Source: a virus (lineage: Duplodnaviria > Caudoviricetes). Taken from it: a stretch of DNA of 64,000 nucleotides. The position numbers were made by a program, and so were the translations under genes. The stretch spans positions 62,257 through 126,256 of IMG/VR virus record IMGVR_UViG_3300026187_001862; one strand, 5' to 3'. The notes under the pieces are model-generated. The model saw only the letters and a list, made by a program, of their open reading frames with translations. It did not search any database and was not told the origin of the DNA. Positions 38,526 through 59,775 of the stretch are shown here, one piece after another. Position 1 is the stretch's first letter. Each line of letters begins with the position of its first letter.

Positions 38526-39836
38526 TTATAACTTTTCGTGTACTGCGAATCCTCTAAAGGTTTTGAATCGAGGAAACCGTAACGAATAAGTACCGTCTTG
38601 ATTTTGTGTAATAGCATCTGCTCTTACCTCTACTAAATTTCCGATAATGCTGTTGCGACTATTCCAGAAATCATCACGATTAGCATCAGTGAAACCACTA
38701 CCGACATTAACAGTAATTTGTCTGTCATCGTCGACTCCTTCGCATACAAACGCTCCAAGGCGCCCTTTGTTGCGACCAGTACCTTCTTCAATTTCTTTTA
38801 CCTCCAATGTTACTTCAATAAATGGCTTTGCTTTAAGCCAAGCGTGTGTGCGCTTACATTCATATGGTGCGTCAATATCTTTAATCATTACACCCTCGTA
38901 ACCACCGTCTACAGCCGCTTTATTAAGCTCTGTAAAGCGTGTTTGTCCTTCAGGGGTGTCTAGATCTACATCCTCCCAATCCAATGCTTGTACGTGCTCT
39001 AAGACGTCTTTATTTTGCTCTACCCAAACGCTAACATATTGACTTCTAACGTGTTGTGGTTTATTCCATACACCTTGTTGAAAGTTTTCTAGAGGAACTA
39101 TATCAAACAAATGTAGTACAGCATCATTTGCTTCTACATTCTCTTTGCGATGCACTTGCTTCATAAGATCTTGGAAGTTAGCACTCATTACTTCGCCATC
39201 TAGAACAAGATCATACGGAACAGGTTTCTTAGCAATTACTTGTTCAATCTCTGCAATGATGTGTCCAAAGTTGTGAAACTGTTTTCCGTTACGGCTAAAC
39301 ATTTCTACTTTGTTGCCTTGAATAACTGTAATAACACGAACACCATCTAGTTTAATTTCAATCTGCTTTTGACCTACCATTTTCTTTTCGTGCTTGGCTG
39401 AGTCGTGTGCAAGAGCGCAAGTGAACACAGGAACAGTACCTGGTGCTACTTTGTTTACAGTTTTTTCGCTTACACCACAACGTAGGTCTTTGATAAGTAT
39501 TCTGCGGTACCAACCGTTCCATTGTTCAGTTGTAGCAACACTCATTGCTAGTTCAATAGCATCACGAGCGGCGTGTCCTGTTAGTTCGCGATTTTGTAGT
39601 TTTTCTGCAAGTTCTTTAAACACAGGCCACGCAAGTCCTTGTCCAGTTAGCACGTCTGAGCGTTCTGGTACTTGCTTTACACCAAATGTTACAAGCGGAT
39701 CTAATGCCATACGCAATCCTTCAAAGAACTCTGGAAGACCTTCTTCGTGGGCGGCACGAATGATATCTTCTTTGTTAATACGACTGGAATGTGTTTCTAG
39801 TGCTCCAATAATATAGTTTGGTTGTGTTCTTACCAT
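38526..39836 (-). CDS. ATP-dependent DNA ligase
   Basis: KLDGVR, LDGE, EGVMIK, WLKAK, SLRFPRF. Confidence 0.95.
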   Translation of the reverse strand: MVRTQPNYIIGALETHSSRINKEDIIRAAHEEGLPEFFEGLRMALDPLVTFGVKQVPERSDVLTGQGLAWPVFKELAEKLQNRELTGHAARDAIELAMSVATTEQWNGWYRRILIKDLRCGVSEKTVNKVAPGTVPVFTCALAHDSAKHEKKMVGQKQIEIKLDGVRVITVIQGNKVEMFSRNGKQFHNFGHIIAEIEQVIAKKPVPYDLVLDGEVMSANFQDLMKQVHRKENVEANDAVLHLFDIVPLENFQQGVWNKPQHVRSQYVSVWVEQNKDVLEHVQALDWEDVDLDTPEGQTRFTELNKAAVDGGYEGVMIKDIDAPYECKRTHAWLKAKPFIEVTLEVKEIEEGTGRNKGRLGAFVCEGVDDDRQITVNVGSGFTDANRDDFWNSRNSIIGNLVEVRADAITQNQDGTYSLRFPRFKTFRGFAVHEKL

Positions 39837-40054
39837 TCCATCGCCCCTTCTACTTTATCTAAAATTGCTTTTGAGTGCTTGCAGGATCCTCTAAATGTAA
39901 ATCCTGGACAATCACAATCAAATCCTTTGTCGTGTAATTCTACACTGTACTCGTTGCCCTTGCTGCCTGCTACAGGCCAAACGAAGCCCACCATCCAATG
40001 GTCCTTAGACTTAAAGGAGGTGGGCTTCAAGTACTTTGCTGTGTACTTGCTCAT
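39830..40054 (-). CDS. SWIM zinc-finger protein
   Basis: CDCPGF...CKH. Confidence 0.8.
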   Translation of the reverse strand: MSKYTAKYLKPTSFKSKDHWMVGFVWPVAGSKGNEYSVELHDKGFDCDCPGFTFRGSCKHSKAILDKVEGAMEW

Positions 40055-40566
40055 ACTAAATCCTCAACGCTGATTGGCGTAAAGTTAATTTGTTCAACAC
40101 AAACACACTTGTAAGGACCTTCTGGTGAAGGATTACTGTGAATATGTCCGTGTACGTTCAACTTTGGCTCATCGCCCCATCTATGTCTTTCAGCAAGTGT
40201 AGTTGGATGCAACGGAGTGTGTGTTAAAATTAACCCTGGAACACTGTCAATCCAAAGTTGAATGTCTTTAAAGAACGGAGTAAGCATCTTTACATTATCA
40301 TGGTTACCTAGTACAAGTCTTTTCTTGCCTGGTAACTTAGTAAAGTTTTGCTCCATCCAGTCAACTTTGTCCATACCAAACAGAACGTCTCCACAGTGAA
40401 TGACAGTATCGTTTGGCTTCACAACACTTGCCCAGTTGTCTAACATGCACTCGTTCATTTGCTCTACAGAGTCAAAAGTTCTAGGCGGCTTGCCAGCGTA
40501 ATCCTTAAAGGTAAGGATTGCTTCGTGGTTAAAGTGTGTATCACTAATAACGAATATATCTGCCAT
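40051..40566 (-). CDS. metallophosphoesterase
   Basis: SDTH, GD, GNHD, HGHIH. Confidence 0.9.
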   Translation of the reverse strand: MADIFVISDTHFNHEAILTFKDYAGKPPRTFDSVEQMNECMLDNWASVVKPNDTVIHCGDVLFGMDKVDWMEQNFTKLPGKKRLVLGNHDNVKMLTPFFKDIQLWIDSVPGLILTHTPLHPTTLAERHRWGDEPKLNVHGHIHSNPSPEGPYKCVCVEQINFTPISVEDLV

Positions 40567-40602: not shown

Positions 40603-40631
40603 ATTATAGCAAGGATTTGCTATTGTGTCAA
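40603..40631 (-). promoter_or_regulatory. sigma70-type promoter
   Basis: TTGACA-17-TATAAT with TG extended -10. Confidence 0.8.
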
Positions 40632-40664
40632 CCATTATGATCTTGTTTAAAATCAACAACTTAG

Positions 40665-40739
40665 TGGAGTGAGCGACAGGATTTGAACCTGCATAAAACG
40701 GATTTGCAATCCGTTGCCTAACCTTTCGACCACGCTCAC
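40665..40739 (-). tRNA. tRNA-Cys(GCA)
   Basis: Cloverleaf GTGAGCG...ACGGA TT GCA AA TCCGT...TTCAAAT...CGCTCAC T CCA. Confidence 0.95.
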
Positions 40740-40744
40740 ATGTT

Positions 40745-40828
40745 TGGTGGGGAAGGGAGGAATTCGCACCTCCACAGCTTTCGCGCCGAATTTACAGTCC
40801 GGTGGGCTCACTCGTGCCCAGCCTCCCC
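40745..40828 (-). tRNA. tRNA-Tyr(GTA), non-canonical D and T loops
   Basis: GGGGAGG...CCGGA CT GTA AA TTCGG, variable arm, T loop TGCGAATT, A CCA end. Confidence 0.88.
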
Positions 40829-40832
40829 AAAT

Positions 40833-40909
40833 TGGTCGGGGTAGCAGGATTTGAACCTGCGATCTTTCCGCCCCAAACGGAACGACTTACCAGACTAGCC
40901 TATACCCCG
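40833..40909 (-). tRNA. tRNA-Pro(TGG)
   Basis: CGGGGTA...TTCCG TT TGG GG CGGAA...TACCCCG A CCA. Confidence 0.95.
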
Positions 40910-40913
40910 TAAT

Positions 40914-41001
40914 TGGCATCGGTTGAGGGATTCGAACCCCCTGATTATTTCTAATCCTGGTTTTGGAGACCAGTGTACCACTCCAACTGTACCGAACCGA
41001 C
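40914..41001 (-). tRNA. tRNA-Trp(CCA) with long variable arm
   Basis: GTCGGTT...CTGGT CT CCA AA ACCAG, GATTA-GAAA-TAATC arm, GGGGG TTCGAAT CCCTC, G CCA end. Confidence 0.9.
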
Positions 41002-41023
41002 TTAAACTTTTTACTTCCTCCAT

Positions 41024-41061
41024 AAAAAAAGCCCCTAACTGAATTAACTGCTAGGGGCTTT
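41024..41061 (-). terminator. intrinsic terminator (attenuator) just upstream of the tRNA operon
   Basis: AAAGCCCCTAGC-loop-GTTAGGGGC followed by T7. Confidence 0.85.
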
Positions 41062-41081
41062 CAACGTACTAAAAAGTCACA

Positions 41082-41144
41082 TCAAGACAAACCCCTACCT
41101 CCTGGCGGGCACCAATACAAATAATTTGTTGCTGTCTTGAACAT
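41082..41144 (-). CDS. leader peptide MFKTATNYLYWCPPGGRGLS (not in ORF track)
   Basis: AAGGA RBS; codons TAT TTG TAT TGG TGC CCG CCA match the downstream tRNAs; 3' part overlaps the antiterminator. Confidence 0.8.
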   Translation of the reverse strand: MFKTATNYLYWCPPGGRGLS

Positions 41145-41171
41145 GTTAATATTCCTTCTAAGTATGTATAT

Positions 41172-41200
41172 ACTATAACTTCTTTGTATTTATATGTCAA
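41172..41200 (-). promoter_or_regulatory. dual promoter for the leader/tRNA operon
   Basis: TTGACA-17-TATAGT with an exact TATAAATA late motif inside the spacer. Confidence 0.75.
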
Positions 41201-42950: not shown

Positions 42951-43026
42951 TGGTGCCGGATACAAGAGTCGAACTCGCGACCTTCTCATTACAAGTGAGC
43001 TGCTCTACCAACTGAGCTAATCCGGC
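42951..43026 (-). tRNA. tRNA-Thr(TGT)
   Basis: GCCGGAT TA GCTC AGTTGGTA GAGC...CT TGT AA...TTCGACT...ATCCGGC A CCA. Confidence 0.95.
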
Positions 43027-43808: not shown

Positions 43809-43899
43809 TGGCGGAAGCGGTGGGATTCGAACCCACGAGACGCTATCAACGTCTGTCCGTTTAGTAGACGGGTGCTTTCGACCACTCAGCCACGCTTCC
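43809..43899 (-). tRNA. tRNA-Ser with ACT anticodon
   Basis: GGAAGCG...CCGT CT ACT AA ACGG, long variable arm AGACG/CGTCT, G73, CCA. Confidence 0.92.
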
Positions 43900-59511: not shown

Positions 59512-59775
59512 TTACTTTTTTTTCTTTTGAGTGTAACTTTGGCCTTGATCTAGTTCCATTTTTGCTAATTTTTTTAGCCATCTAGCTCGGCCAGCGGCTT
59601 TTGCTTTTTTACGTCTTAAACTAGGTTTTACAAAAAATTCACGCTCTCGAACTTCTTGTAAGACGCCGTCTTCTTGCACTTTCTTTTTGAATTTACGTAG
59701 TGCATAGTTAAAGTCTCCGTTGCGTACTTCAACTGTAAGACCTTGCTTGACTTGATTATCTCTATTCTTTCTCAA
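59512..59775 (-). CDS. rpsU: ribosomal protein bS21
   Basis: ALRKFKKKV...REREFFVKPS.RRKK.K.A. Confidence 0.9.
   Translation of the reverse strand: MRKNRDNQVKQGLTVEVRNGDFNYALRKFKKKVQEDGVLQEVREREFFVKPSLRRKKAKAAGRARWLKKLAKMELDQGQSYTQKKKK

Follow-up and report, generated by a model that had tools for sequence, protein, structure and literature searches.

Long variable arms in bacterial tRNAs are, by the textbook rule, restricted to those for serine, leucine, tyrosine and selenocysteine (PMC7609411), and the original prediction for the phage gene described here, a tRNA-Trp(CCA) with a class II-type arm, took this restriction as established. It stands as a textbook statement, but many exceptions to it were found in phage and MAG contigs. 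The gene itself is real and conserved, and most likely specifies a tryptophan tRNA of unusual, class II-like design. Like the class II tRNAs (Ser, Leu, Tyr, Sec), it has an enlarged D loop and a variable region of at least 10 nt folding into a stem-loop (15 nt, 5-bp stem); unlike them, it carries a Trp anticodon (CCA), a Trp acceptor end and a 4-bp D stem. With bacterial tRNA-Trp of the E. coli and B. subtilis type it shares the anticodon loop CUCCAAA, G73, a weak first pair with U72, and the 7/5 arrangement of acceptor and T stems (identity elements in PMC9976931), but it differs in having a 15-nt arm rather than 4-5 nt, C8 rather than U8, a 10-nt D loop, and G1.U72 in place of A1-U72.

Two described groups of tRNAs with mismatched bodies and anticodons invite comparison. 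The allo-tRNAs (Mukai et al. 2017, PMC5389517) also combine long arms with non-Ser anticodons and also occur in metagenomes and phages, but their branch is 8/4 or 9/3, their D arm is Sec-like, and that report predicts them to be Ser acceptors, whereas the present tRNA has a 7-bp acceptor stem, a 5-bp T stem and a Trp-like acceptor end. The nev-tRNAs of nematodes likewise join class II bodies to anticodons of class I amino acids, but they are eukaryotic, Leu-type bodies that change codon meaning (PMC3333845), while the phage body tracks its cognate amino acid, Trp. Phage tRNAs that escape tRNA-targeting defences resemble the present case in that the phage copies differ structurally from those of the host; the changes reported lie in the anticodon loop, and no change of the variable arm is described there (PMC10264068). 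Defences directed at tRNAs are numerous according to the abstracts surveyed, and literature searches found no paper describing arm extension as a means of phage escape. Nor did they find a description of long-armed phage tRNA-Trp, although the phage tRNA clusters in the supplement of PMC5389517 may bear on this.

Source phage and the tRNA operon

The window, meaning the whole 64-kb stretch of DNA that was analysed, is the right half of one linear IMG/VR virus record of 126,256 bp, with a GC content of about 36% and a completeness of about 34% (CheckV). PHROG scans revealed genes of a tailed phage (head protease, tail fibres, endolysin, spanin) and, on the same contig, a family B DNA polymerase, an ATP-dependent ligase, PhoH, Hsp20 and genes of 7-deazaguanine synthesis. 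The polymerase shares 43-50% identity with its counterparts in jumbo phages of Sinorhizobium, Agrobacterium, Vibrio and Escherichia; both it and the DNA ligase have only distant relatives, at less than 51% identity, and no close cultured relative of the phage was found among 50,697 phage records. The virus is an uncultured phage of aquatic bacteria. In blastn searches of the same 50,697 records nothing resembled the long-armed tRNA-Trp, the matches being limited to the class I tRNA-Trp of Brevundimonas jumbo phages, in the 3' part. The phage also encodes a ribosomal protein S21 (59512..59775), and the left end of its contig (L310:901-7486) holds a run of five radical-SAM proteins with two weak QueC-like matches.

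ARAGORN called six tRNA genes in the window, all on the minus strand, and the Rfam tRNA model matched all six. Four of them form an operon, which begins with tRNA-Trp(CCA) (40914..41001; 88 nt, CCA end encoded) and continues with tRNA-Pro(UGG) (40833..40909), tRNA-Tyr(GUA) (40745..40828) and, as the last gene, tRNA-Cys(GCA) (40665..40739). The other two specify tRNA-Thr (42951..43026) and tRNA-Ser(ACU) (43809..43899). The tRNA-Tyr is a natural class II tRNA and also has C8, as do 7 of the 36 distinct Tyr tRNAs of the loci compared; it is drawn by ARAGORN with a 4-bp D stem and an 8-nt T loop. The tRNA-Ser(ACU) has a normal class II Ser body with G1-C72, G2-C71, G73 and a 6-bp arm, and 18 further ARAGORN calls of this kind were made in related loci; A34 is unusual outside tRNA-Arg(ACG). 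Directly downstream of the operon, also on the minus strand, are genes for a metallophosphoesterase and an ATP-dependent ligase (38526..40566), preceded by a perfect consensus promoter on that strand (40631..40603). The pair recalls RNA-repair gene sets, but the ligase itself matches DNA ligase families.

The structural features named in the original prediction (anticodon CCA, a 15-nt arm, G73, G1-U72 and C8) were all borne out by ARAGORN, by Rfam and by the cloverleaf. Rfam model RF00005 matched 40917..41001 with 41.0 bits (gathering score 29, E 3.7e-6), its alignment placing 13 inserted bases in the variable region. The acceptor stem of 7 bp begins with G1.U72 and U2-A71 and is followed by C8 and G9; the D arm has a 4-bp stem and a 10-nt loop with G18G19, and A14 is present; the anticodon arm has a 5-bp stem and the loop CUCCAAA, with the anticodon at 40964..40966 (minus strand; ARAGORN, Rfam) in a loop that is invariant in the family alignment; and the T arm has a 5-bp stem, the loop UUCGAAU and, beyond it, the discriminator G73. 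The variable arm (40942..40956, minus strand) is a 5-bp stem, GAUUA/UAAUC, closed by a GAAA loop, with one unpaired A on its 3' side. Shuffling the same 15 letters gave a 5-bp hairpin in 17 of 1000 cases. U8 is near-universal in tRNAs, and the 15:48 pair would here be G:A, which together with C8 makes for an unorthodox tertiary core.

That the arm might be an assembly error had been named as a way in which the prediction could fail, and it was excluded because in contigs from two other DNA runs, neither of them marked as a possible source (X2 record 12 and X4 record 26), the arm is matched letter for letter. The same 15 letters also recur in three distinct tRNA sequences from nine IMG/VR loci. 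The RNA-library contigs of runs X19 and X20 gave no coverage of 40878..40954, and so do not bear on expression of this allele. In one of them, X19 record 2, the leader region (41052..41193) and Pro-Tyr-Cys (40663..40862) are connected by 151 letters of different sequence, as would be expected of a relative with a short allele; this is only a weak hint of co-transcription, given that DNA can occur in such libraries.

The long-armed family in phages and cells

Bodies of the same type as that in the window, with C8, a 4-bp D stem, a 10-nt D loop and a long variable arm, are here called type A. They were collected with a pattern restricted to the D loop and the anticodon loop, leaving position 8 and the arm unconstrained, which gave 91 stretches in IMG/VR and, by ARAGORN, 33 distinct tRNA-Trp; all 33 have C8, 31 being 84-89 nt long and two 78 nt. 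With loci added later, the type comprises 42 distinct phage sequences, of which all 42 have C8 and 41 the 10-nt D loop, and the variable region measures 11-20 nt in 40 and 5 nt in two. One type A tRNA-Trp, identical to that of viral contig L264, is on a 39.6-kb contig (L184) that was assigned to a Neomarinimicrobiota MAG bin but is probably of phage origin, so that the hint at a host is at most faint.

Selection of the fold is evident in the family alignment, which holds 37 of the 42 sequences, the most divergent (L084, L089, L120, L147, L247) having been dropped by eye. In it, every cell of the acceptor, D and anticodon stems is paired (100%), and pairing amounts to 95.5% of cells in the alignment as a whole; 17 of 26 pairs have changes on both sides, and the covariation score was equalled by none of 500 shuffles. 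Also conserved in type A are the T loop, G18G19, U33, the A36-A37-A38 context and the encoded CCA. The arm itself is more variable. Among the 34 distinct long variable regions, 14 form a perfect stem of 3-7 bp running from the first variable base to one base before the T stem, and these 14 have 12 different stem sequences, with compensatory changes between close relatives; 10 of the 34 pair better than 95% of their own shuffles. Another 12 are 12-nt forms with a mini-stem of only 2-3 bp; they lie in another register, which lowers pairing of the V helix to 72.7% of cells across the full alignment. In the subgroup of the window, then, the arm is truly class II-like, but in another subgroup it is no more than a long loop, and the two members with a 5-nt region show that it is dispensable. 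The best explanation, as judged from these comparisons, is that the long arm and the remodelled core (C8, a 10-nt D loop, no base on the 5' side of the arm and one A on the 3' side) evolved inside the tRNA-Trp lineage.

Long and ordinary forms occupy the same position in related phages. In 80 loci, fetched via the phosphoesterase gene that adjoins the tRNA cluster, a tRNA-Trp(CCA) was found at the same place in 52. The slot holds an ordinary class I tRNA of 74-76 nt in 43 of the 80 and the long form in nine, with both together in none; 28 have no tRNA-Trp, many of these loci being cut short. The clearest case is the pair formed by the window and locus L010, which in pairwise alignment have near-identical promoters and leaders and identical Tyr and Cys genes, the exchanged segment consisting of tRNA-Trp (88 versus 74 nt), a 21-nt spacer and tRNA-Pro. 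Long and short tRNA-Trp thus fill the same slot of near-identical operons. The spacer (41002..41022, minus strand) travels with the type A allele and is absent where the 74-nt tRNA-Trp directly follows the terminator; similar spacers are present in L001, L018 and L110. As a natural probe, such a pair of 74- and 88-nt alleles could show how the arm is tolerated or read by TrpRS, by EF-Tu, by the ribosome and by tRNA-directed defence nucleases, and it bears on why phages carry a tRNA for an amino acid with a single codon.

A search of phage tRNAs for CCA anticodons with a variable arm had been proposed as a check, and when carried out it returned not only type A but further body types. A second pattern, which required the Trp anticodon arm and the T loop with 16-30 nt between them, matched at least 117 stretches in IMG/VR and 54 in a set of one genome each from 185,579 species. 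By ARAGORN, 78 of the 84 new viral loci among the matches listed hold a long-armed tRNA-Trp(cca), as do 34 of 54 genome loci. Other body types that combine a long arm with the CCA anticodon are common, occurring on more than 100 viral contigs among the matches listed: one body has Ser/Leu-like D arms, A1-U72 and G73, and is often on contigs of 100-500 kb, while another is a canonical Trp body with an inserted hairpin, as in Collinsella. Of 60 distinct viral sequences outside type A, again among the matches listed, 42 have A-U or G.U at 1:72 and 51 have G73.

About half of the 30 long-armed CCA tRNAs taken from genome contigs are Ser-like, with G1-C72 in 14 and G2-C71 in 15. The idea that such a gene might be the sole tRNA-Trp of a cell was rejected, as a normal tRNA-Trp was also present in all five of the cellular genomes checked; the cellular long-armed copies are therefore accessory, and their presence is no proof of function. 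A full Ser-like end (G1-C72, G2-C71, G73) was seen on the cellular contigs L182, L185, L206, L216 and L225. Pelagibius and Saccharibacteria provide examples of the Ser-like form; of the genomes behind these five contigs, these two were checked, and both have a normal tRNA-Trp alongside. To judge by their acceptor ends, these Ser-like tRNAs of cellular contigs are candidates for inserting Ser at UGG.

Long variable regions also occur in other class I tRNA species of the same phage group: Cys(GCA) of 83 nt (L012:1721-1803, L019:1120-1202), Asn(GUU) of 85 nt (L031:295-379, L059:3219-3303), Ile(UAU) of 94 nt (L020:5823-5916), and a 101-nt call labelled Asp(AUC) (L037:4676-4776). The Cys, Ile and Asn species keep the discriminators proper to them, with U73 in 10/10 long-armed Cys, A73 in 7/7 Ile and G73 in 11/12 Asn tRNAs. 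The long-armed Trp, Cys, Asn and Ile tRNAs show phages departing from the arm rule again and again without giving up the cognate acceptor identity. Many uncultured phages carry the design, and no earlier description of it was found in literature searches.

Amino-acid identity and the role of the arm

The original prediction had offered a choice between a Trp tRNA shielded from host nucleases and one mischarged with Ser or Leu that recodes UGG. Acceptor ends were compared among the tRNAs of the same set of phage loci. Pair 1:72 of type A (42 distinct sequences) is G.U in 33, A-U in eight and G-C in one; G73 is invariant (42/42), and G2-C71 occurs in only seven. The 21 class I tRNA-Trp have G.U in 10 and A-U in nine, G73 in 20 and G2-C71 in five. 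In tRNA-Ser (84 sequences), the corresponding features are G1-C72 in 77, G73 in 74 and G2-C71 in 81. C11-G24 is a Ser element known from E. coli identity studies, and 11:24 is U-A in all 37 aligned type A sequences. As regards the geometry of the arm, type A has no spacer on the 5' side in 35 of 40 cases, tRNA-Ser has one base there in 54/84 and one unpaired 3' base in 61/84, and tRNA-Leu has no 5' base in 71/86 and one 3' base in 63/86, so that the type A arm (no base 5', one base 3') is closer to tRNA-Leu than to tRNA-Ser of the same loci. Since the acceptor end is like that of the 74-nt tRNA-Trp of sister phages, and since the two alleles are exchanged, the gene is best read as a Trp tRNA and not as a Ser or Leu recoder. 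The comparison indicates an arm added onto cognate identities, rather than a Ser body with a new anticodon.

As regards that choice, a working Trp tRNA is the most likely. The bacterial Trp determinants are the anticodon, G73 and the first pair (PMC9976931); the window tRNA has C34 C35 A36 and G73, with G1.U72 as its first pair against the A1-U72 of bacterial Trp identity. The preferred reading is that it is probably a functional, UGG-reading elongator charged with Trp by the host TrpRS, with a remodelled core and an arm that entails no switch of identity. Recognition by the host enzyme would rest on the CCA anticodon, on G73 and on the weak first pair R1.U72, and the tRNA would be supplied by the first gene of a Trp-Pro-Tyr-Cys operon; the long arm would leave the amino-acid identity as it was, and the allele and an ordinary 74-nt tRNA-Trp can replace one another. 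That the tRNA is charged with Trp and used by the ribosome is what we infer from the signature and the exchange. A phage-encoded synthetase or a second tRNA-Trp, which would complicate this reading, could sit beyond the contig; the TrpRS and SerRS domains (PF00579, PF00587, Pfam) had no match within it, that is, within about 34% of the genome. Recoding of UGA or UAG, including by a Hirsh-type UGA-reading tRNA-Trp, was considered and rejected, as treating TGA, TAG or TAA as sense merges no long ORFs on the 126-kb contig.

Mischarging with leucine found no support, given that G73 is an antideterminant for LeuRS in E. coli tRNA-Ser (PMC9976931), and the G73 of type A argues against Leu and Tyr identity alike. 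The serine alternative is disfavoured and quite improbable. It supposes that SerRS binds the long arm together with G73 and loads serine, with UGG then being read partly as Ser during infection, and it draws on the report that these two features are the main SerRS determinants (PMC7609411, PMC5389517), so that some serylation may occur; the window tRNA has both, its arm being 5 bp, and it shares with most tRNA-Ser the single unpaired base 3' of the arm, while some cellular CCA tRNAs with long arms are Ser-like at the acceptor end. The window tRNA, however, has none of the Ser features G1-C72, G2-C71 and C11-G24, and the same holds for type A in general, where 1:72 is R.U in 41 of 42, G2-C71 is infrequent and U11-A24 is constant. 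The 5' spacer usual in tRNA-Ser is mostly missing, many type A arms reach only 2-3 bp, the allele is exchanged with a normal tRNA-Trp in L010, and phage proteins give normal scores when UGG is read as Trp, e.g., thymidylate synthase with E 5.6e-112. Least credible is that the RNA is not used in translation at all, being a decoy, a regulatory RNA, an integration target or a decaying pseudogene. Its unorthodox core, with C8, would fit such a role, and some irregular long-armed allo-tRNAs are reported to be inactive in translation (PMC5389517), but the helices and the canonical loop positions listed above are all conserved along with the encoded CCA, the gene is first in an operon with ordinary tRNAs, and a Trp codon is present in every one of the 32 leaders described below.

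If the product is a working Trp tRNA, as preferred here, the arm may yet be non-adaptive: an insertion, neutral or compensatory, by which a core made weaker through C8 and other changes is stabilised. This has some plausibility, though it remains a minority view: the arm varies widely in length (5 to 20 nt) and sequence, C8 is found also in the class II tRNA-Tyr of the phage and of other loci, and the two arm-less members together with the weakly paired 12-nt forms show that the arm is not essential. Against it, a long region is kept in 40 of 42 type A members, with stems maintained by compensatory changes, and long arms have also arisen elsewhere, in several more class I species and at least two more body types of tRNA-Trp. 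This recurrence in several tRNA species and body types argues for recurrent selection, and the balance leans towards a putative role of the arm in protecting or marking the tRNA against a tRNA-directed nuclease, more than towards pure drift. A more elaborate version is speculative and rather unlikely as a whole: the arm and the C8 core would form a putative self-mark, by which the armed Trp, Cys, Asn and Ile tRNAs survive a nuclease of host defence or of phage-imposed host shut-off, in an operon under feedback control by a leader attenuator that reads the codons decoded by the operon's own tRNAs. Were it true, the tRNA genes of the locus would be governed by a switch that senses tRNA. The variable arm serves synthetases and nucleases as a handle, and the paired alleles raise the question of whether long-armed bodies could serve as orthogonal tRNA scaffolds.

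A candidate attenuator ahead of the operon

Ribosome-mediated attenuators such as those of trp, his and pheST combine a promoter, a short leader ORF with many regulatory codons, and mutually exclusive antiterminator and terminator structures (PMC1183508). The region upstream of the tRNA operon has the same parts, but the genes controlled would be tRNA genes, and its leader mixes codons that match the operon tRNAs. A consensus scan found a sigma-70-like promoter, TTGACA-17-TATAGT (41172..41200, minus strand; 11/12), which is conserved in relatives. It is followed on the same strand by a Shine-Dalgarno-like GAAGGA upstream of a leader ORF of 20 codons with its stop (41082..41144), the centre of which, YLYWCPP, is a run of seven codons for Tyr, Leu, Tyr, Trp, Cys, Pro and Pro. 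Six of 19 leader codons are read by the four operon tRNAs, compared with 9.0% of codons genome-wide (binomial P 0.005). Then comes a hairpin resembling an intrinsic terminator, followed by seven U (41023..41063, minus strand); it was read from the sequence and is kept in 32 distinct loci, the consensus scan having missed it because the loop is longer than the scan allows. The 3' end of the leader ORF, UAGGGGUUU, can pair with the 5' half of the terminator. By RNAfold, this antiterminator has -20.6 kcal/mol before the 3' half of the terminator exists, and the terminator -21 kcal/mol in the free RNA or with the end of the ORF masked by a ribosome at the stop codon; the short ORF with regulatory codons is thus joined to two mutually exclusive structures. 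The element is a candidate leader-peptide attenuator for tRNA genes, by which the operon would be switched on when ribosomes stall for lack of the tRNAs that it encodes.

The same architecture was found, under a strict filter, in 32 distinct leader/operon combinations, 12 of them ahead of type A and 20 ahead of class I tRNA-Trp, and at least eight further leaders were recognised by eye (L059, L060, L067, L095, L110, L125, L151, L158). A Trp codon is present in all 32, once in 27 and twice in five, and 58 of 67 non-Trp operon tRNAs have a cognate codon in their own leader; when leaders were shuffled among loci, the mean was 46.4 and the maximum 57 in 20,000 permutations that ignore relatedness. 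Some codons follow the content of the operon individually. ATA is present in all five leaders whose operon has a tRNA-Ile(UAU), against 6 of 27 others (P 0.002), and Gln codons average 3.0 against 0.89. Taken singly, tracking by Cys, Pro, Met and Tyr codons is not significant, the Glu and most of the Arg tRNAs at the distal ends of operons are unmatched by leader codons, and the Gly example fails at the codon level (GGU versus anticodon UCC). Examples of matched pairs are a Trp-Tyr operon with the leader YITYW, which has no Cys, a Trp-Pro-Cys-Arg operon with FRWCPPR, a Trp-Pro-Cys-Ser-Ile operon with SIICWPS, and the ten-tRNA operon of L110, the leader of which holds all ten amino acids. In the divergent families of L059 and L110, the complementarity between the 3' end of the leader and the 5' half of the terminator is kept, by eye, with other letters.

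The Trp codon of the leader had been put forward as favouring a working Trp tRNA. The leader ORF exists and is conserved, as is its Trp codon, which supports a decoding-competent tRNA for UGG, but neither separates charging with Trp from charging with Ser. Among Rfam families the leader gave only a sub-threshold match to sau-19 (24.5 bits against a gathering score of 80, E 0.6), and literature searches found no description of a leader-peptide attenuator ahead of tRNA genes. If the element is confirmed, classical attenuation would extend from amino-acid operons to tRNA genes. Nine loci (L006, L011, L019, L021, L038, L040, L108, L151, L158) have some 95 nt of extra sequence with long inverted ends between the terminator and tRNA-Trp; this insert may be a small mobile or structured RNA element.
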